Made by a program: the position numbers and the translations under genes
Notes under the pieces: generated by a model
Databases searched by the model: none
Told to the model about the DNA's origin: nothing
Seen by the model: only the letters and a program-made list of their open reading frames with translations
Assembly: GCF_004010195.1 (NCBI RefSeq)
Contig: NC_057754.1
Coordinates: 7,974,747 to 8,038,746 of the forward strand
Direction: 5' to 3'
Length of the DNA stretch: 64,000 nt
Source of the DNA: Chiloscyllium plagiosum
Lineage: Eukaryota
Shown here: piece by piece, positions 47 through 63,100 of the stretch
Numbering within the stretch: the stretch's first letter is position 1
Layout of the letters: the number at the start of each line of letters is the position of its first letter

Positions 47-242
47 TTTGGAGATGCTGGTGTTGGACTGGGGTGTACAAAGTTAAAAATCACACAACAC
101 GGGTTTAATTGGAAGCACTAGCTTTCGGAGCGACGCTCCTTCATCAGGTGGTTGTCTGATGATGAAGGAGCGGCGCTCCAAAAGCTAGTGCTTCCAATTA
201 AACCTGTTGGACTATAATCTGGTGTTGTGTGATTTTTAACTT
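47..242. mobile_element. Palindromic Penelope-type (pLTR-like) element, family A, two inverted arms
   Basis: Left arm (AAAGTTAAAAATCACACAACAC...GCACTAGCTTTCGGAGC) is the reverse complement of the right arm (GCTCC...AGCTAGTGC...GTGTTGTGTGATTTTTAACTTT). Flanked by TGCGTTTGATGA (35-46) and TGCATTTGATGA (243-254). Confidence 0.8.
116..150 (-). ncRNA. Minimal type-I hammerhead ribozyme motif (family A, intact core)
   Basis: Minus strand reads CAC CUGAUGA A GGAGC GUC GCUCC GAAA GC UA GUG: stem I CAC/GUG, full core, 5-bp stem II, palindromic AGCU stem III, UA cleavage site. Confidence 0.8.
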
Positions 243-7844: not shown

Positions 7845-8345
7845 AGCAATAAGAGGGGAGATTCAGAGGGTTCGAGAAAGATTTATACGGATGTTGGAAG
7901 GTTTGAACTGCAGGGAGAGGCAAAATAAGCAGGGGCTACTTTCCCTGGAACATTGCAGTCGGAGGGGTGACCTTATAGAAGTTTATGATACCATGAGAGG
8001 CATGGATAGGGTGAATAGTCCAGTTCTTTTCCCCAAGGTAGAGGAGTCCAAAACGTGAGCGCATACGTTTAAGATGAGAGGGGAAAGAGTTAAAAAGGGA
8101 CTTAAGGGGCACCTTTTTTACGAAGAGAGGGTGGTGCGTGTATGGAATGAGCTGCCAGAGGACATGGTGGAGGCTGGTACAATTACAACATTTAAAAGAT
8201 TATCTGCATGGTATATGAATAGGAAGGGTTTAGAGGGATATGGACCAAATGCTGGCAAGTGGGAGAAGATTAATTTAGGATTTCTGGTCAGCGTGGACCA
8301 GTTGAACTGAAGAGTCTGTTTCTGTGCTGTACATCTTTATGACTG
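7845..8345 (+). mobile_element. CR1 LINE 3' fragment
   Basis: Peptides RRGDLIEVY...RVVRVWNELPEDMVEAGT plus the CR1 3' UTR. Confidence 0.9.
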
Positions 8346-11864: not shown

Positions 11865-14275
11865 TAAGAAGATCTCGGGCATCTGTAAGAATAATAGGGT
11901 TCTAATGGCAGGGGATTTTAACTTTCTAATTGTCGACTGGGACTGCCATCGTGTTAAGGGCTTTGTTGGAGACAAATTTACCTATTCAATATATGGATGT
12001 ACCTACTAGAGAGGGAGCAAAACTTGACCTTCTCTTGGAAAATAAGGCTGGGTAAGCGACTGAGGTGTCAGTTGGGGAGCACTTTGGGGCCAGCAACCGT
12101 ACTTCTAATAGCTTCAGAAGAGTTGTGGAAAAGGACAGACCAGATCTAAAAGTTAAAGTTCCAAATTGGAGTGGGCCAATTTTCACGGTATTAGGCACGA
12201 ACTTTCAAAAGTTTATTGGGGGAGGCTGTTCACAGGTAAAAGGGAGGTTGGCAAGTGGGAGACTTTCAAACATGAGGTAACGAGAGTTCAGAGACAGGAT
12301 GTTCCTGTTAGTGCAAAGGGCAAGGCTGGTCGGTATAAGGAATGCTGGGTGACTAGAAAAATTGAGGTTCTGGTCAGGAAAAAGAAGGAGGCATATGTGA
12401 GGTATAGACAGTTGGGATCCATTAAATCCGTAGAAGAGTGTAAAGGCAGTAGAGGTGTACCTAAGAGGGATTTAAGGAGGGCACAAAGGAGACATGATAT
12501 AGGTTTGGCAAATATGGTTAAGGAGAATCCAAACAAATTCTACGAATACATTAAGGGCAAAAGAGTAACTAGGGAGAAATTAGGGCCCCTTAAAGATCAA
12601 CAAAGCCACCTATGTGTGGATGCCCAAGAGATGGATGAGATACTAAACAAATATTTTGCATCAGGTTTACTGTAGAGAAGAACATGGAAGCTAGGGAACT
12701 TGGGGAAATAAATAGTAATGTCTTCAAAAGTGTCCATGTTACAGGAGAGGTGGTGCTGGAGGTCACAAACACATCAATATAGTTAAACCCCCAGGACTTG
12801 ATCAGGTGTATCCTAGAACTTTGTGGAAAGCTAGGAAAGACATTACTGAGACATTTTTATCATTGACACCTATGGGCAAGGTGCTGGAAGACTGGAGGTC
12901 AGCTAATGTGGTGCTGTTATTTCAGAAAGTTGGTAAGGAAAAGCCAGGGAACTATAGACCGGTGAGCCTGACATCAGTGGAGGGTAAATTGTTGGAGGGG
13001 AATTCATATGCATTTGGAAAGGCAAGGACTGATTAAAAGTAGTCAACATGGCTTTGTGCGTGGGAAATTGTGTTTTACTAACTTGACTGAGTGTTTTGAA
13101 GAGGTGATAAGGACGAGGGATGAAGGCAGAGTGGTAGATGCTGTCTGTATGGACTTCAGCAAGGTGTTTGAAAAGGTTCCACATGGTAGAATGGTTAGCA
13201 AGGTCGAGTCACATGGAATCCAGGGGCAGTTAGCCAATTGGATACAAAATTGACCGTGAAGGTAGGAGATAGGGGATGGTGGTGGTGTTGGAGGGTTGCT
13301 TTACAGACTGGAGAACTGTAACCAGGGTGGCTGGGTCTACTGCTTTTCATCATGTATACAATTTGAATGTATGGCAAGGTTAGTAAGTTTGCAGGTCACA
13401 CCAAAGGCGGTGGTAGAGCGGACAGGGAAAAAGGTTACCTTAGAGTAGTATGGGACCTTAAACGGATGGGCTGAGGGGTGGCATATGGAGTTTGGATAAA
13501 TGTGAAGTGTTGGAATTTGGTAAGGCGAACCCGAGCAGGACTTGGACAGTTCATGGTGGGACCCCTGGGAATAAAGAGACCTAGTGCTGCAGCTGCATGG
13601 TCCCTTGAAAGTGGAGTCGCAGGTAGACAGGGTGGTGAAGGCGGCATTTGGTACACTTGCCTTTACTGGTCAGTGCATTGAACATAGGAGTTGGGAGGTC
13701 ATGTTACGGCTGTACAGGACATTAGTGAGGCCACTTTTAGAATACTGCTTTCAATTTTGGCTGCCTTGCTGGAGGAAAGATGTGGTTAAACTTGAAAGGG
13801 TTCAGCAAAGACCTACAAGGATGCTGCAAGGGTTGGAGGGTTTGAGCTACAGGGAGAGGCTGAATAGGCTGGGGCTGTTTTCCCTGCAGAATTGAAGGCT
13901 GAGGAGTGACCTTATACAGGTTTTTAAAGTCATGAGGGGCATAGATAGGATCAATAGCGAAGGTCTTTTCCCCAGGGGTAGGAGAGTCCAAAACTAGACG
14001 TCATAGGTTTAAGGTGAGAGGGGAAAGATTTAAAAGGGATACAAGGGGCAACGTTTTCTTGGAGAGGGTGATGCGTGTATGGAATGAGCTGCCAGAGGAG
14101 GTGGTGGAGGCTGGTACAATGGTAACATTTAAAAGACATCTGGGTGGGGATATGGAGAGGAAGGGTTTAGAAGGATTTGGGCCAGGTGCTTGCAAATGGG
14201 ACTAGATGAGATTAGGATATCTGGTTGGCATGGACGAGTTGGATCGAAGGGTCTGTTGTGGTGCTGTATGACCCT
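11865..14275 (+). mobile_element. Degenerate CR1 LINE ORF2 (late endonuclease, RT, 3' UTR)
   Basis: Frameshifted peptides GDFNF, KENPNKFYEYIKGKR, EDWRSANVV..F.K..KEKPGNYRPVSLTSV.GKLLE, QHGFVRGK.CFTNL, MDFSKVFEKVPHGR, LYRTLVRPLLEYC.QFW, RVWNELPEEVVEAG. Confidence 0.93.
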
Positions 14276-14958
14276 TCTTCTGTCTCCTCTGCTCCCCCCC
14301 CCCTGCCCCAACCTTCCCCCCCAGAGGGTTGTGGGATTTCGGTTGTGTTCAAGACATAGGTCTTGATCTGAAAAGTGTGTGTGTGTGGGGCAGGGGAGCG
14401 CGATGATATTGTGAAGGAGGTAGAAGATGAACCAGGGCCTATTAGAATAGCTGAGCAGGCTTGAGGGGCCGAATGGCCTATTCCTGCTTCTTCTTCCAAT
14501 GTTCCTGACCCATTCTGAGCCTTTAACCCTCGCGCTGATGTCTTGCTCCTGAACCTGTGACTTACCCCCCCCCCCCCCCACCCCCCTCCCCCGGGGTTGT
14601 TATATCCTCCGTGACTGAAAGTGAACTGTCCCATTTTCCTGATCGATGTTGAGGAAGTACCCAGTCCCTACCCTGTGACGATTTAGTATCGATCTCCTTT
14701 CTCACCGCTGTGTTTCGCAATTAATCAAATCTTGACTCGGAAGGAAATTGCCCACTCGAGTGTATTCTTTACATTCATATCCTCTCTAAGTGAGCTCACT
14801 TGGGAAAATGCAGCCTTGTCTTCAGCAATCACACCCACCCTCATCCTCCCAAACCCATTTCTCCTCTCTCGATGAGGGATTTTATCAAATGGAACGAAAT
14901 TATTATGGGACTGTAGAATAAAATTGAGTGTCTCGGATCACCATTAGAAGCTTGGCCT

Positions 14959-22139: not shown

Positions 22140-22627
22140 CTGGCTGAATAGACTGGGATTTTATTCCCTGGAGTGTAGGAGGCTGAGGGGGACACCTTAT
22201 CGAGGTTTGTAAAATCACGAGGGACACTGATAAGGTGAATAGCCGTTAAGTCCTTTACCCAATGAAGGAGAGTCCAAAACTAGAGGGCTTAGGTTTAAGG
22301 TGAGGTTTAAGAGGAACCTGAGGGGTAACTTTTTCACGCAGAGGGTGGTGCGTGTATGGAACAAGCTGCCAGAAGAAGTGGTGGAGGCTGGTACAATGAC
22401 AACATTTAAAAGGCAGCTGGATAGGGACATAGATAGGAAGGGTTTAGAGGGAGATGGGCCAAGCACAGGCAAATTGGATGGAAGGGTCTATTTCTGTGCT
22501 GCATGACTCTATAAGCTGCCTGACCTGCTGTGCTGTTCCAGCAATAAAGTTTCAACTTAGAGGGAGATGGGCCAAGCACAGGCAAATTGGATGGAAGGGT
22601 CTATTTCTGTGCTGCATGACTCTATAA
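22140..22627 (+). mobile_element. CR1 3' fragment whose last 71 bp are duplicated around a 42-bp Penelope-type insert
   Basis: RVVRVWNKLPEEVVEAG. 22444-22514 is identical to 22557-22627; the insert 22515-22556 is GCTGCCTGACCTGCTGTGCTGTTCCAGCA... Confidence 0.85.
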
Positions 22628-23357: not shown

Positions 23358-23474
23358 GATGAAGGAGCAGCACTCCGAAAGCTAGCGCCTGCGAATAAGC
23401 CTACTGGACTCCAACCTGGTGTAGTGTCATTTTTAACTTTGTCCACCCCAGTCCAATACCGGCACCTCCAAATC
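23358..23474 (+). mobile_element. Penelope-type family A single arm, starting inside the hammerhead
   Basis: GATGAAGGAGCAGCACTCCGAAAGCTAG...ATTTTTAACTTTGTCCACCCCAGTCCAATACCGGCACCTCCAAATC, matching the element at 47-242. Confidence 0.78.
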
Positions 23475-33111: not shown

Positions 33112-33660
33112 GAATCATAGAAACCCTGTGATGCAGATAAAGGCCATTTGGTCCATCAATTCTGCACTGGCCCTCTGAAGAGCGTCCCAACCTGACCCAC
33201 CTACATTTCCCATGGCAAATCCACTTGGTCTGCACATCCCTGGACACTATGAAACAATTTAGCACGTCCAATCCACCCGAACCTGCACATCCCTGGGCAC
33301 TATGGGACAATTTAGCACGGCCAATCCACCCTAAACCTGCACATCCCTGGGCACTATGGGACAATTCAGCGCGGCCAATCCACCCTAACCTGCACATCCC
33401 TGGGCACTGTGGGACAATTTAGCACGGCCAATCCACCCTAACCTGCACATCCCTGGGCACTATGGGTAATTTAGCACGGCCAATCCACCCTAACCTGTAC
33501 ACCTTTGGATTGTGGAAACCGGAGCCCCTGGAGGAAACCCCACACAGACACGAGGGGAAGAACGTGCACATTCCACACAGACAGTTGCCCGAAGCTGGGG
33601 TTGAACCCGGGTCCCTGGCTCTGTGAGGCAACAGTGCTAACCACTGAGCCACTGTGCTGC
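33112..33660 (-). mobile_element. HE1/V-SINE-like SINE with internal ~53-bp tandem expansion (about 6 units)
   Basis: Repeated CTGCACATCCCTGGGCACTATGGGACAATTTAGCACGGCCAATCCACCCTAAC, plus a tRNA-like head at ~33600-33660. Confidence 0.88.
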
Positions 33661-33838: not shown

Positions 33839-34098
33839 GAGAAAGTGAGGACTGCAGCTGCTGGAGATCAGAGTCAAAAAGTGTGGCGCTGGAAAAGCAC
33901 AGCGGGTCAGGCAGCATCTGGCGCTGGAAAAGCACAGCGGGTCAGGCAGCATCCGAGGAGCAGGCGATAATTTCGGGCATAAGCCTTTCATCAGGAATCC
34001 ACATTCCCGATGAAGGCCTTATGTCCAAAACGTCCACTCTCTTGCTCCTCGGATGCTGCCTGACCTGCTGTGCTTTCCCAGCGCCACACCTTTTGACT
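33839..34098. mobile_element. Palindromic Penelope-type family B element with two degenerate hammerheads at its centre
   Basis: Arms are inverted about ~34000 (TTCATCAGGAATCC/ACATTCCCGATGAAGG). 35-bp internal tandem duplication 33884-33918 / 33919-33953. Inserted in a family-2 SINE. Confidence 0.8.
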
Positions 34099-35167
34099 AT
34101 AGGCTAATTTCTGGGGACCTGCGTTCAAATCCTACCACGGCTAATGGTGGAATTTGAATTCGATAAATGGACGATTCCGTGGAGGAAAAGGCTGCCGTTT
34201 GAGCAGCACTTGAATACCTTGGGCTTGTACTCACTGGAGTCGGGAAGAACGAGAGAAGGGGGGGGGATCTGATTGAGGTGTATGAGAATGTTAAAGGGGA
34301 TTGGGAAGGTGGATGTTGGCCAGGTGCTCCCCCTTGTGGGGCAGCCTCGAACAAGGGGTCACAGACACGGAGTGAGAGGGAACCGGTCCAAAACTGACCC
34401 GGGGGGAAACTAATTCTCTCAGAGGGTTGTGAGCCTGTGCTACTTAGTCTCCCAGAGTGAAGTGCAGGCAGAATCACTCGACAGACTCAAGAAGGGAATG
34501 GGTATATTTCTGGTGGGAGGTGCGATAAAGGGCGATGGGTATCAGGCAGGAGAGTGAAGGTAGGACCAGAATAAGATCAGCCATGATCATGTTCAATGGC
34601 AAAATGGGCTTTAAGGGCTGAGTTGCCTACTCCTGCTCCTAATTCCTGTCTAATCCTGAATTAAGAGTCTAATGATGACCGTGACCCGATTGTCAGAAGA
34701 CCCATCTAGTTCACTTCAGGAAGGACATTTAGGTGAGGGTATCTGCCATCCTTACCCAGTCTGGCCTACATGTAACTCTGGGCCCTCATCAGAAGTGGGT
34801 AACTCTTAACTGCCCTCCAGGGAATTAAGCTGGGTCATAAATGCTGTCCTAGCCAGTGATGGCCTCATCCTCTGAGGGGATAAGAAAAAGACCTTTGTGT
34901 TCAGATTTCAAAAGTGGTCTCTGGTGGGAGGCTCTGAGTTTGGGTCCCACTCGCTAGCCAGTTTGTAAATCCTTCTGCTAGTACAGTAAGACCAGGTGAC
35001 TGTCTTGTGGTAGAGTGCCCCTCATCAAGCTTCAGCCTCCGGTGGTCTGGTCCATCAGCAGCAAGCTGTGGAGGCAGATGCGCTGTCTGACGATACCAGC
35101 GATCCCATGTGTCATTCTCACGTGGTGAATCGATGGTGACAGTCACAGCCATCCTGTCTGCTCCTCT

Positions 35168-35565
35168 CCTGTACCCGAGCTGGTGCCTGTACCCAGGCTG
35201 GTGCCTGTATCCGGGCTGGTGCCTGTATCCGGGCTGGTGCCTGTATCCGGGCTAGTGCCTGTACCCAGGCTGCTGCCTGTACGCGGGCTGGCGCCTGTAT
35301 CCAGGCTGGTGCCTGTATTCAGGCTGGTGCCTGTATTCAGGCTGGTGCCTGTACCCTGGCTGCTGCCTGTACCCGGCTGGTGCCTGAACCCAGACTGGTG
35401 CCTGTACCTGGGCTGGTGTTTGTACCTGGGCAGCTCCCTGTACCCAGGCTGGTGCCTGTACTCGGGCTGGTTCCAGTACCTGGGCTGGTTCCCGTACCTG
35501 GGCTGATGCCTGTACCCGGGCTGGTGCTGTACCTGTGCAGCTGCCTGTACTCTGGCTGCTGTCTG
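35168..35565. repeat. 18-bp minisatellite (GCTGGTGCCTGTACCCRG)n, about 21 units
   Basis: Direct tandem repeats with one 17-bp unit. The minus strand translates as VQAPAR or GYRHQP repeats. Confidence 0.92.
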
Positions 35566-38032: not shown

Positions 38033-38161
38033 GCGAAAGTGAGGACTGCAGAGGCTGGAGGTTAGAGTTGAGACTGTGGTGCTGAAAAAGCACAGCAGGT
38101 CAGATAGCATCCAAGGTGCAGGAGAATTGATGTTTTGGGCATAAACCCTTCATCAGGGATG
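38033..38161 (-). mobile_element. Penelope-type family B arm with hammerhead remnant (G12 to A)
   Basis: Minus strand CATCC CTGATGA A GGGT TTAT GCCC AAAA CA TC AATTC. Confidence 0.78.
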
Positions 38162-40523: not shown

Positions 40524-41084
40524 ATATCACAATGTGTGACATAGAACATTGTTCCATCAAGGGGATAGTTTCTTCCTGCCCACTCTCATAATTTTATCCA
40601 TCTCAAGCATGTTCTTGTCAGTCTCCTCTGCTCGAGAGAAAACAGCCTCAATCTGTCCAGTCACTGAAACTCTGCAGCCCAGGCAACGTCCTGGTGAATC
40701 TCCTCTGCACCTTGTCCTGTGCTGTCATGTCCCTCCAAGAGTGTGGATTCCCCAGAGTGTTACTGGCCCATTGATGCTCGCACCAGTCCCTTTGATCTCC
40801 AAGTGGAAAGGGAAACACTGCTATGGAGAACATAAATCCGAGAGATTACTTCAAAGCACACTTTCCAATGACATGAACTGTCTGACATCAAACGTGTCTG
40901 TTATTGTGTCGAGGATACCACATACTGAAGAGAGAAATGCTTGCTCCTATTGTGTAACTTGGGCAAGAAGCATTTGATAAAGTTGATCGAATCGTATTTA
41001 CTCCAATGGGGAAGGGAGTCCGTAATGACAGAGAGAAAGAGGGGGTCTGAGAGTGTGTAAGTCCAAGAGAATGTTTGTTTATGC

Positions 41085-41355
41085 AGCTGTGAGACAGAGA
41101 GTGTGTGTTTATGTGGGTGTGAGACAGAGAGTATGTGTTTATGCGGGTGTGAGACAGAGTGCGTGTTTATGTGGGTGTGAGACAGAGAGTATGTGTTTAT
41201 GCGGGTGTGAGACAGAGAGTGCGTGTTTATGCGGGTGTGAGACAGAGAGTGCGTGTTTATACGGATGTGAGACAGAGAGTGCGTGTTTATGCGGATGTGA
41301 GACAGAGAGTGTGTGTTTTTGCGGGTGTGAGACAGAGAGTGTGTGTTTATGTTTC
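41085..41355. repeat. 30-bp minisatellite (GTGTGAGACAGAGAGTGCGTGTTTATGCGG)n, about 9 units
   Basis: Period 30 (one 28-bp unit), visible directly. Confidence 0.92.
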
Positions 41356-41429
41356 TTTGTGTTTGCTGGGGGAAGTGTAGGAAGCACGTTTTCACTCAAA
41401 GATGAGTGGGAATCTGTTTCTCCATTTGT

Positions 41430-47446: not shown

Positions 47447-47653
47447 GAGAAGGTGAGGACTGCAGATGCTGGAGATCAGAGTTGAGAGTGTGGTGCTGGA
47501 AAAACACAGCAGGTCAGGCAGCATCCAAGGAGCTGGAGAAATTCCTGATGAAGGGCTTATTCCTGATGAAAGGCTTATGCCCGAAATGTCAATTCTCCTG
47601 CTCCTCGGATCCTGCCTGATCTGCTGTGCTTTTCCAGCACCACACTCTCGACT
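47447..47653. mobile_element. Palindromic Penelope-type family B element with a duplicated CTGATGA core
   Basis: Inverted arms. Centre AATTCCTGATGAAGGGCTTATTCCTGATGAAAGGCTTATGCCCGAAATGTC. Loose TGTGAG.TGCTTT.ATG duplication on the flanks. Confidence 0.8.
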
Positions 47654-54100: not shown

Positions 54101-54194
54101 CAAGATCAGAGTGGTGCTGGAAAAGCACAGCAGGTCAGGCAGCATCCGAGGAGCCGGAAAAATCGACGTTTCAGGCAGGAGCCCTTCATCAGGA
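54101..54194 (-). mobile_element. Penelope-type family B arm with a perfect 12-bp target duplication
   Basis: ATGCTCTGGGGA at 54089-54100 and 54195-54206. Confidence 0.82.
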
Positions 54195-54196
54195 AT
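54161..54196 (-). ncRNA. Minimal type-I hammerhead ribozyme motif (family B, intact core)
   Basis: Minus strand AUUC CUGAUGA A GGGC UCCU GCCU GAAA CG UC GAUU: complete core, stem II closed by G.U, palindromic ACGU stem III, GUC cleavage triplet, weak stem I. Confidence 0.7.
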
Positions 54197-54363
54197 GCTC
54201 TGGGGAGTCAGGAGGTGTGTTGCTTACTGCAGGATTTCAAACACCCTGCTCTGCTCCTGTTGCCATAGCATTTAGATGACGAAACTTCACATTAGGTTAA
54301 AATGTGGCATAGTTCATTGTGACCGAACCCCTTAACCCTGAACATGGGAAAGTATGAAGGTAT

Positions 54364-54545
54364 GATTTGGAGAAGCCGGTGTTGGACTAGGGTGTACAAA
54401 GTTTAAAATCACACAACACCAGGTTATAGTCCAACAGATTCATTTGGAGGCACTAGCTTTCGGAGCGTTAAGGGGCAGCGCTCCGAAAGCTAGTGCATCC
54501 AGATAAACCTGTTGGACTATAACCTGGTGTTGTGTGAGTTGTAAC
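54364..54545. mobile_element. Palindromic Penelope-type family A element
   Basis: Inverted arms meet inside hammerhead stem II (TTTCGGAGCG...CGCTCCGAAAGCTAGTG). 13-bp duplication TATGAAGGTATGA at 54353-54365 and 54546-54558. Confidence 0.82.
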
Positions 54546-54629
54546 TATGAAGGTATGAGGAGCAATATGGCTGCGGTGGATTGGGAAATTATGTTAATGG
54601 GCAATGGTTAGTATTTAAAGAATTACTGC

Positions 54630-59744: not shown

Positions 59745-60340
59745 CTGGGTTAGCTCAGTTGGCCGGACAGCTGCTTTGTGACACAGAGTAATACCAACAG
59801 CACAGGCTGAGGTTAAGGTGAGAGGGGAAGGATTTAAAAGGGACCCGAGGGGCAACCATTTCACACAGAGGGTAGTTCAAACGTGGAACCAGCTGCCGGA
59901 GGAAGTGGTAGCTGCAGGTACAACACTTAAGACGACATTTCGAAAGATGCATGAATTGGGGGAAAGTGGGGATTGAAGATGCTGGAGATCAGAGTTGAGA
60001 ATGTGGTGCTGGAAAAGCACAGCAGGTCAGGCAGCATCCAAGGAGCAGGAGAATCGACATTTCAGACATAAGCCCTTCATCAGGAATGATTCCAGATGAA
60101 AGGTTTATGACGTGAATTGGGAAGGTTTAGAGGGATATGGGCCGAATGCAAGCAAATGGGACTACTTTAATTTGGGATATCTAGTTGGAGTGGACGTGTT
60201 GGACCGAAGGGTCTGTTTCCGTGCTATATGACTCTATGACTGAGTTTACCATGACAGGACACTCCCTCTCATCTCAGGTTAAAGCTAGTCACCTCTGTTA
60301 AATGAAAGCAGCCCTGCAGTGCAGTCCGGTGACTTTACCC
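59745..60340 (+). mobile_element. Nested stack: family-3 SINE interrupted by a CR1 3' end (59816-60239), itself interrupted by a Penelope family B element (59961-60110)
   Basis: CR1 flanked by CTGAGGTTA / CTGAGTTTA. Penelope-type insert flanked by CATGAATTGGG / CGTGAATTGGG. Confidence 0.8.
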
Positions 60341-62600: not shown

Positions 62601-62794
62601 CATGGGTTTGGATTAGGTTCGGATATCTGGTCGGTGCAGAAAGGTTGGATGGAAGGGTCTTTATGCTTGTTGTACAACTCTATGAACTCTATTCAAGTTG
62701 CTATATTCTCACTTATGTTATCCTATGGCACAAATTGTTATGATTGTGTGAAATTTGGCATTTTTGCTTCTGCCTGATGAAAAGATTCAATGAT

Positions 62795-63100
62795 AGGAGT
62801 CCAGAACTAGAGGGGCATAGGTTTGGGGTGAGAGGGGAAAGATGTAAAAGGGACCTAAGGGGCAGCTTTTTCACACAGAGGGTGGTACGTGTATGGAATG
62901 AGCTGCCAGAGGAAGTGGTGGAGGCTGGTACAATTGCAGCAATTAAAAGGTATCTGGATGGGTATATGAATAGGAAGGGTTTGGAGGGATATGGGCCAAG
63001 TGCTGGCAAATGGGACGAGATTAGATTAGGATATCTGGTCAGCATGGACTAGTTGGACCGAAGGGTCTGCTTCTGTGCTGGACATCTCTACAACTCTAAT
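62795..63100 (+). mobile_element. CR1 3' end
   Basis: RDLRGSFFTQRVVRVWNELPEEVVEAGT plus the 3' UTR. Confidence 0.9.

Follow-up and report, generated by a model that had tools for sequence, protein, structure and literature searches.

We analysed a 64-kb stretch of Chiloscyllium plagiosum DNA (the window), which carries at positions 47-242 a palindromic insertion with a hammerhead ribozyme motif. A preliminary description had taken it for a member of a separate, non-coding family that is either derived from the pLTRs of Penelope-like elements (PLEs) or retrozyme-like. The locus thus raises the question of whether such an insertion is an element of its own kind or the footprint of another one.

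The insertion is an asymmetric inverted repeat of 196 bases, consisting of two arms arranged head-to-head. Its palindromic nature and its 12-bp target duplication (TSD) were borne out: the TSD lies at 35-46 and 243-254, with one mismatch between the copies, and the final 4 nt of the left copy also match the element end. Arm positions are numbered along the sense strand with C3 of the hammerhead as 0, which puts the predicted cut between +28 and +29. The tailed arm (47-155, minus strand) is a pLTR and putative 5' UTR that runs from -8 to +120 with a 17-nt internal deletion. It contains the PLE 'tail' (about +86 to +120; 47-78, minus strand), found on this arm only, the poly(A) signal ATTAAA at +38 to +43 (104-109, minus strand; AATAAA in the other subfamily) and, at 116-150 of the minus strand, a sequence match to an intact minimal type I hammerhead with predicted cleavage. 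The latter reads CAC-CUGAUGA-A-GGAGC-GUC-GCUCC-GAA-AGCU-A-GUG and has the full core, the extra A after A9, the 5-bp stem II, the palindromic AGCU and the 3-bp stem I that had been described. Core, stem II and AGCU occupy 147-141, 139-135/131-127 and 123-120 of the minus strand, and the predicted cut lies between 119 and 118. Population statistics (see below) place a putative transcription start at the A of position 155 (-8), preceded by a G (155-156, minus strand); in this copy, the G at 156 could equally derive from the other arm. A duplicated CTGA at 156-159 (plus strand) forms the arm-arm junction, and the tail-less arm follows at 160-242 (plus strand; +1 to about +85, ATTAAA at 197-202). 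The window copy is therefore a clean case, spanning -8 to +120 on one side and +1 to +85 on the other.

A hammerhead had been proposed for each strand. On the plus arm the change of G12 to A is indeed present (180; it sits in a CpG that is altered in 14/80 arms), but the alignment begins only at U4 (160): the duplicated CTGA displaces C3 by 3 nt and stem I is lost, leaving the motif incomplete. The two proposed siblings also stand in part. The one at 23358-23474 (plus strand) belongs to the same family (family A), but it is a solo tailed arm (+2 to +118) with an incomplete core lacking C3 and U4, and not a palindrome. The other, at 54362-54549, is a second family A palindrome with a 13-bp TSD (54353-54365 and 54546-54558), but with arm starts at +15 and +6 it has CUGAUGA on neither side. 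Within the window, the whole core is present in one of five family A arms. In the whole 64 kb, a descriptor of the minimal type I hammerhead matches a single site (minus strand, C3 at 147), compared with 0.03 sites in each of 30 Markov-shuffled windows, none with a palindromic stem III. An Rfam scan returned no match to a hammerhead model. The models that it did return were of hairpin-shaped miRNAs, with scores far under the gathering thresholds, and these matches only mirror the hairpin shape.

Genome-wide, the 35-nt hammerhead pattern has 9,961 exact matches in 3.56 Gb and a 27-mer downstream of it 35,260, while the reversed control of either gives 0. Many family A copies extend upstream into a common 3' UTR. 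One copy, L061, is a 3.8-kb insertion with an inverted tail-less arm, a tailed arm, a 12-bp TSD and the same end as the window insert. Upstream of that end it encodes RT (PF00078, RVT_1, E 1.9e-08) followed by a GIY-YIG-like NIVYLIRC..WYIGET; this piece is unscored by Pfam, and many relatives carry PF01541. A DKG motif precedes the core RT (IKPADKGG in L111, L113 and L115), and a CX4CxxC linker lies between RT and EN (CHGGRCKTC in L105 and L098). Since a CX2-5CxxC linker marks the Neptune and Nematis clades (PMC8557442; this and all other papers are cited for the parts of them available to us), family A copies would be of Neptune/Nematis type. The best named protein matches of the element are shark proteins with 79% identity. 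Its layout has the pLTRs, the inverted 5' copy, the one-sided tail of 30-40 bp and the TSD of an EN+ PLE, and the minimal hammerhead in the pLTR is oriented sense to the ORF. Moreover, an ATG directly follows the tail, at +121, in the three near-full copies examined (L111, L107 and L102), which indicates that the stretch of pLTR beginning with the hammerhead and ending with the tail serves the downstream copy as its 5' UTR. An intact full-length ORF was sought in eight of the longest frames, all of which ran through assembly N gaps. Judged by sequence, the arms correspond to the pLTR end of an EN+ PLE of Neptune/Nematis type that is abundant in the genome. Genome counts and ORF-linked copies thus support the preliminary description insofar as it proposed an abundant, Penelope pLTR-derived family with a minimal hammerhead, and an RT plus GIY-YIG-like ORF of the kind it envisaged is found on the same end.

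To characterize the arms as a population we combined 30 loci, 10-kb stretches around most of 70 other listed 27-mer places, and the window. Arms were chosen by the 27-mer downstream of the ribozyme, or because they adjoin such a site, and removal of 18 duplicates from overlapping loci left 166. On the 3' side they end at about +80 to +89 or at +115 to +123. Head-to-head pairs account for 98/166 arms, and direct tandems are rare (L063, L118). One arm is tailed and the other tail-less in 48 of the 49 pairs, and one tail-to-tail neighbour was seen; by a looser count over all loci, 133/144 pairs have one tail. The centres of all 49 pairs are distinct, and the junctions between arms range from overlaps to gaps (-12 to +38). 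A TSD of at least 8 bp (9-16 bp) flanks 35/49 pairs, compared with 2% of shuffled pairs, and the search found none for the other 14. With distinct centres, asymmetric ends and TSDs of 9-16 bp, the constant interior, symmetric ends and fixed TSD length of a MITE or similar unit are absent, and the palindromes look like separate integration products rather than a unit element or retrozyme.

The two arms of a pair usually carry the same subfamily marks. A 2-bp indel is concordant in 72/82 pairs (50% expected at random) and the variant of the poly(A) signal in 105/117 (63% expected at random). Ten of the 82 pairs scored for the indel are discordant, about 1 in 9, one of them being a parsing artefact. 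Most pairs thus derive from a single RNA or source locus, and some from two. In L006, L010 and L082, rare changes are common to both arms, reflecting either a common template or later hairpin gene conversion.

The 5' ends of the arms cluster at the 5' edge of the hammerhead. Whereas 86/166 arms start between -15 and +4, a single one starts between -30 and -16. Only 12/166 start exactly at -8, and most of the others fall short of it by a few bases. At this point the sequence of long copies is CC-ACAAC, a context that we take to fit an initiator consensus. Genome-wide, 14,012 sites have C at -9, some by chance, and 3,293 have another base. Inspection of the first 70 of the latter gave 16 mutated long copies and 54 true ends, and 46 of these 54 have G at -9 (p 7e-8 against 0.5); in the third subfamily, 23/26 ends do. 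Ends exactly at -8 have the extra G in 69/80 cases where long copies have C, and the base before it varies (T 36, G 22, A 10, C 5). In controls, G is found at 22/76 other truncation points (Fisher p 0.003) and at 2/30 at +25. For L1, the additional G seen where full-length inserts join the target on their 5' side has been traced to copying of the mRNA cap (PMC11702581). The extra G at -9 can be read in the same way, suggesting a capped start at -8. In palindromes, such a G can also come from a G-rich partner arm or from target microhomology, and RT could add C at any strong stop without a cap. Two long copies (L337, L366) have G instead of C at -9, as cap copying before a template jump would leave; long copies with G make up 2/20 of the non-C long copies, which is within ordinary mutation. 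In an older subfamily with AGCTACCTGATG upstream of the core (L131, L134, L135, L136 and L155), the start context differs from ACAAC/ACTAT.

Other causes for the position of the arm ends were tried and rejected. Had RT stalled at the hairpin, ends would be expected near +20, on the 3' side of stem II, instead of -8. Splicing to an acceptor at -8 does not agree with the CC that long copies have there, nor with the inconstant sequence upstream of short arms. Nor does the hammerhead cut site appear to be an arm boundary, as +29 patterns show no excess over +25 patterns: the 30 inspected hits to the +29 pattern comprised 22 longer arms with mutations and about 5 true ends. The latter scale to roughly the control number at +25 and are about ten times fewer than the ends with G at -9. 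A faint local excess of arm starts at +26 to +29 (7/166) is not upheld by this pattern comparison.

Transcript evidence concerns the 3' end. Family A is present in the sequence data of three organisms. In a 3'-type poly(A) single-cell library (X19; about 2% of it read) from organism B, which may not be the window's species, 2,995 reads matched family A, mostly in sense, with all copies pooled. Loose poly(A) ends lie at +57 (377 reads) and +60 (457 reads), a result repeated on L111. They follow the hexamer by about 12-15 nt, and ATTAAA or AATAAA is present in all subfamilies (T/A 43:36). These reads speak for a functional poly(A) site but not for an mRNA of the full-length element, and may stem from host transcripts that use the signal. 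A pile-up of read starts was sought in X19 and not found, as expected of a 3' library, and a depth step near the hammerhead is explicable by first-mate length. A second run of the same sample (X20) yielded 0 matching reads. Two X19 reads join the ORF to exactly -8 of the pLTR (L111:3611 to 3394); this junction, seen in these two reads only, could be a short arm inside an ORF copy or a circular junction.

As to the ribozyme, four families found in the fetched DNA (A, B, C and D) keep core and pairs, while stems I-III differ and the palindromic stem III is AGCU or ACGU. Automatic alignment of the families misplaced family C. A core kept with different stems in four families argues that the motif matters to active elements and is under selection there. 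Among the inserted copies, in contrast, the excess conservation of the core considered in the preliminary description was not found: the core changes per site like its flanks, and 40/82 cores are intact. An RNA spanning the entire palindrome is predicted to form a single long hairpin of -105.9 kcal/mol, 46 kcal/mol more stable than the fold with the hammerhead forced (-59.7 kcal/mol). For the isolated 35-mer, the active dimer is modelled at -16.3 kcal/mol and an inactive stem II duplex at -30.3 kcal/mol. Minimal PLE hammerheads are reported to cleave poorly alone (PMC4209133) or to need the protein (PMC11167929), and are thought to act as dimers (PMC4209133; PMC6765202). The hammerhead in the present insert is a passenger and probably inactive.

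We consider it likely that the insert consists of two run-off cDNAs of a capped, uncleaved 5' UTR, one primed from each target cut end. It is probably a stub of a known kind of element, left behind by PLE copying, and not a new ribozyme element. Transcription would start at the A of -8 and put a hammerhead first in the mRNA, in the order cap (-8), hammerhead, +85, +120/AUG, ORF, 3' UTR, hammerhead and poly(A) at +57. Polyadenylation about +57 after the second pLTR would create a terminal repeat R from -8 to +57, and the RT start sites at +85 and +120 would occur only near the mRNA 5' end. Because the 3' end would lack both sites, RT would have to start in the 5' UTR and would reach the cap after 95-130 nt. 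The PLE protein, probably a dimer, would nick both strands about 12 bp apart; each RT start site would be primed once, RT would run off the cap and copy it as G, and the two cDNA ends would be trimmed and then joined. Use of one start site per arm would account for the one-sided tail, the stagger of the nicks for the TSD, and trimming with end joining for the variable centre. To make longer copies, RT would have to jump to the 3' R or use a read-through template. On either side, the strand that continues from the flank into the insert is the cDNA strand, an arrangement expected if both target ends had served as primers, and short arms keep RNA upstream of the cut site, which argues that they were copied from uncleaved RNA. 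For PAc of Anolis in vitro, both strands are extended, RT starts at two internal sites that bound the tail, and uncleaved RNA is preferred and serves as the main template (PMC11167929). Family B, described below, has a similar 5' edge and extra G, which also favours the run-off reading. Several observations go against it: read starts do not pile up in X19, only 12/166 arms start exactly at -8, so that most ends would have to be trimmed, the extra G has the other possible sources given above, long copies are common (the 14,012 sites that keep C at -9), the concordance of marks between arms also fits copying by fold-back, and in 14/49 pairs the search found no TSD.

The rotifer Penelope is the precedent for the latter. 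There, the head-to-head layout has been interpreted as self-priming (PMC3846280), so that a single cDNA with ordinary 5' truncation would yield the inverted arm. The 88-90% concordance of subfamily marks suits such an origin, but the discordant pairs do not. Random truncation, moreover, would not gather 86/166 ends within 20 nt and leave 1 in the 15 nt upstream; the gaps and overlaps between arms (-12 to +38) are not fold-back loops; and at L192/L193 both arms begin with G-ACAATC and are separated by 2 unrelated bases. We therefore regard fold-back as improbable. A self-contained, non-autonomous MITE- or SINE-like palindrome, or solo arms acting as SINE-like masters, would agree with the copy number (35,260 exact 27-mers), the similar overall size and the TSDs, and the arms would contain an internal promoter if they resemble Penelope of D. 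virilis (PMC2377424). Yet no two sampled palindromes share a centre, the 2-bp indel is discordant in about 1 in 9 pairs, the arms grade into ORF-bearing copies of the same layout, and polyadenylation at +57 would end transcripts short of the RT start sites. Copying of the palindrome as one unit is thus largely refuted, and we give this whole class of explanations very little credence.

The retrozyme-like replicon is the least plausible: RNA cut by the hammerhead, as a dimer through AGCU, or circular RNA would be the template of the inserts. Selection of the core in active elements and the proposed dimeric action of minimal PLE hammerheads (PMC4209133; PMC6765202) would be in keeping with it, and yet arm starts show no excess at the cut site, copies are head-to-head or solo instead of forming head-to-tail arrays, and the modelled active dimer is less stable than the inactive duplex. 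The separate non-coding family or retrozyme of the preliminary description is therefore not upheld, given the individual centres, the gradation into long ORF-bearing copies and the RNA retained upstream of the cut site in short arms.

The run-off reading has a possible extension. Retroviral minus-strand strong-stop DNA is a short cDNA that runs from an internal start to the cap and includes the terminal repeat. We tentatively suggest, as somewhat short of an even chance, that PLEs replicate by an LTR-like route without being LTR elements, through strong-stop synthesis from two sites and an obligatory jump to the 3' R. A target-primed RT dimer would use two fixed 5' UTR sites, one per nicked strand, make strong-stop cDNA up to the cap, jump to the hammerhead-holding 3' R and from there copy the ORF. 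Shark mini-palindromes, in their tens of thousands, would record the events in which no jump took place. If so, the palindromes would map the transcription start, both RT starts and the nick stagger to the base, and the hammerhead pair would bring the RNA ends together rather than cut the template.

Family A is not alone in the window. Another PLE family, B, is unrelated to it and has a different minimal hammerhead (stem II GGGC/GCCC, stem III ACGU); its pLTR sites lie at 301-420, 33883-33994, 38076-38152, 47490-47650, 54111-54200 and 60003-60079. It occurs as solo and head-to-head copies, has 31,591 exact anchors genome-wide, and linkage to GIY-YIG was seen. It shows the 5' edge of family A again, with ends at -10 to +4 of the hammerhead in 69/143 cases and at -30 to -11 in 3. 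A G precedes ATTCC in 21/30 purine-preceded ends, some of which are explained by target microhomology. Two more hammerhead repeat families, C (with a longer stem II) and D, were found at L055:2874, L156:3872, L144:8756 and L120:5273, and are probably other PLE clades. The window also contains tandem arrays at 1521-2032, 35103-35563 and 41008-41404, with units of 53, 18 and about 30 bp, the 53-bp unit being dispersed as well (33330-33466, 37688, 57194). One dispersed repeat with many 3' ends (8065-8345, 13968-14282, 22245-22543, 62782-63096 and others) is, we presume, probably a CR1-type LINE.

As an element the insert is ordinary, being a PLE stub with a known motif in a known layout, and its value is that of a replication footprint. 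PLE replication, the inverted or tandem ends with a one-sided tail and the role of the hammerhead are treated as open in PMC3846280, PMC8557442 and PMC11167929. From the stubs one would predict that capped transcripts begin at -8, that each insertion uses the RT starts +85 and +120 one time apiece, that the template is uncleaved and that poly(A) lies at +57, all of which are amenable to the published in vitro system. The arms also spread many thousands of poly(A) signals and long hairpins across shark genomes. Layout, tail, TSD, minimal hammerhead and a start inside the pLTR are already described (PMC3846280, PMC8557442, PMC4209133, PMC2377424). Our literature search found no paper on strong-stop, cap-G, one-tail or twin-primed PLE stubs, or on shark PLE hammerheads, and PMC6155905 and PMC5932605 contributed nothing further; part of this may already be contained in Arkhipova 2006, Evgen'ev and Arkhipova 2005, Lunse et al. 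2017, Repbase/Dfam and the supplementary figures of PMC11167929 and PMC4209133, which lay outside that search.

Compared with known systems, the inserts are closest to EN+ PLEs (Pen2a_Av, PMC3846280; scheme, PMC8557442; D. virilis, PMC2377424), with which they share the inverted head-to-head pLTR, the 30-40 bp tail at one end, a TSD of about 9-13 bp, a pLTR plus tail reaching up to the ORF start, and a start inside the pLTR. Unlike in these elements as described in the parts available, both arms usually comprise 5' UTR only, copies number tens of thousands, and there is a sharp common 5' edge with an extra G. Poseidon PAc of Anolis carolinensis (Frangieh et al. 2024, PMC11167929) likewise has two RT start sites bounding the tail, cutting and extension of both strands, a hammerhead near the ORF start and an uncleaved template. 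It differs in that family A has the CX4CxxC linker and an ATG 121 nt after C3, where that of PAc lies in stem II, and in that genomic pairs use one start site per arm (48/49), whereas PAc in vitro shows no strand difference (PMC11167929).

The ribozyme itself resembles the minimal hammerheads of Cervera and De la Pena (2014, PMC4209133) in the extra base between 9 and 10.1, the G10.1-C11.1 pair, the tiny palindromic stem III, the short stem I and the dispersal of single motifs in their thousands. That study already records opposite-strand pairs with 100-700 bp between them (PMC4209133). Here, however, stem III is AGCU and the cores are closer, at about 15-50 nt, and no shark is named in the available text of that paper. 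Animal non-LTR retrozymes (bioRxiv 10.64898/2026.07.22.740005), in a survey whose available part covers one chondrichthyan, are also non-coding, hammerhead-bearing and related to PLE pLTRs, but they are tandem head-to-tail with a hammerhead per unit, whereas the present inserts are inverted pairs or solo. Finally, as in L1 twin priming (PMC11702581), priming of both target ends would give inverted inserts with clean TSDs and a G that marks the cap. In contrast to L1 and to retroviral strong-stop DNA, there is no poly(A) priming, tRNA primer or integrase, and a single RNA segment would be copied into both arms, with fixed start sites.
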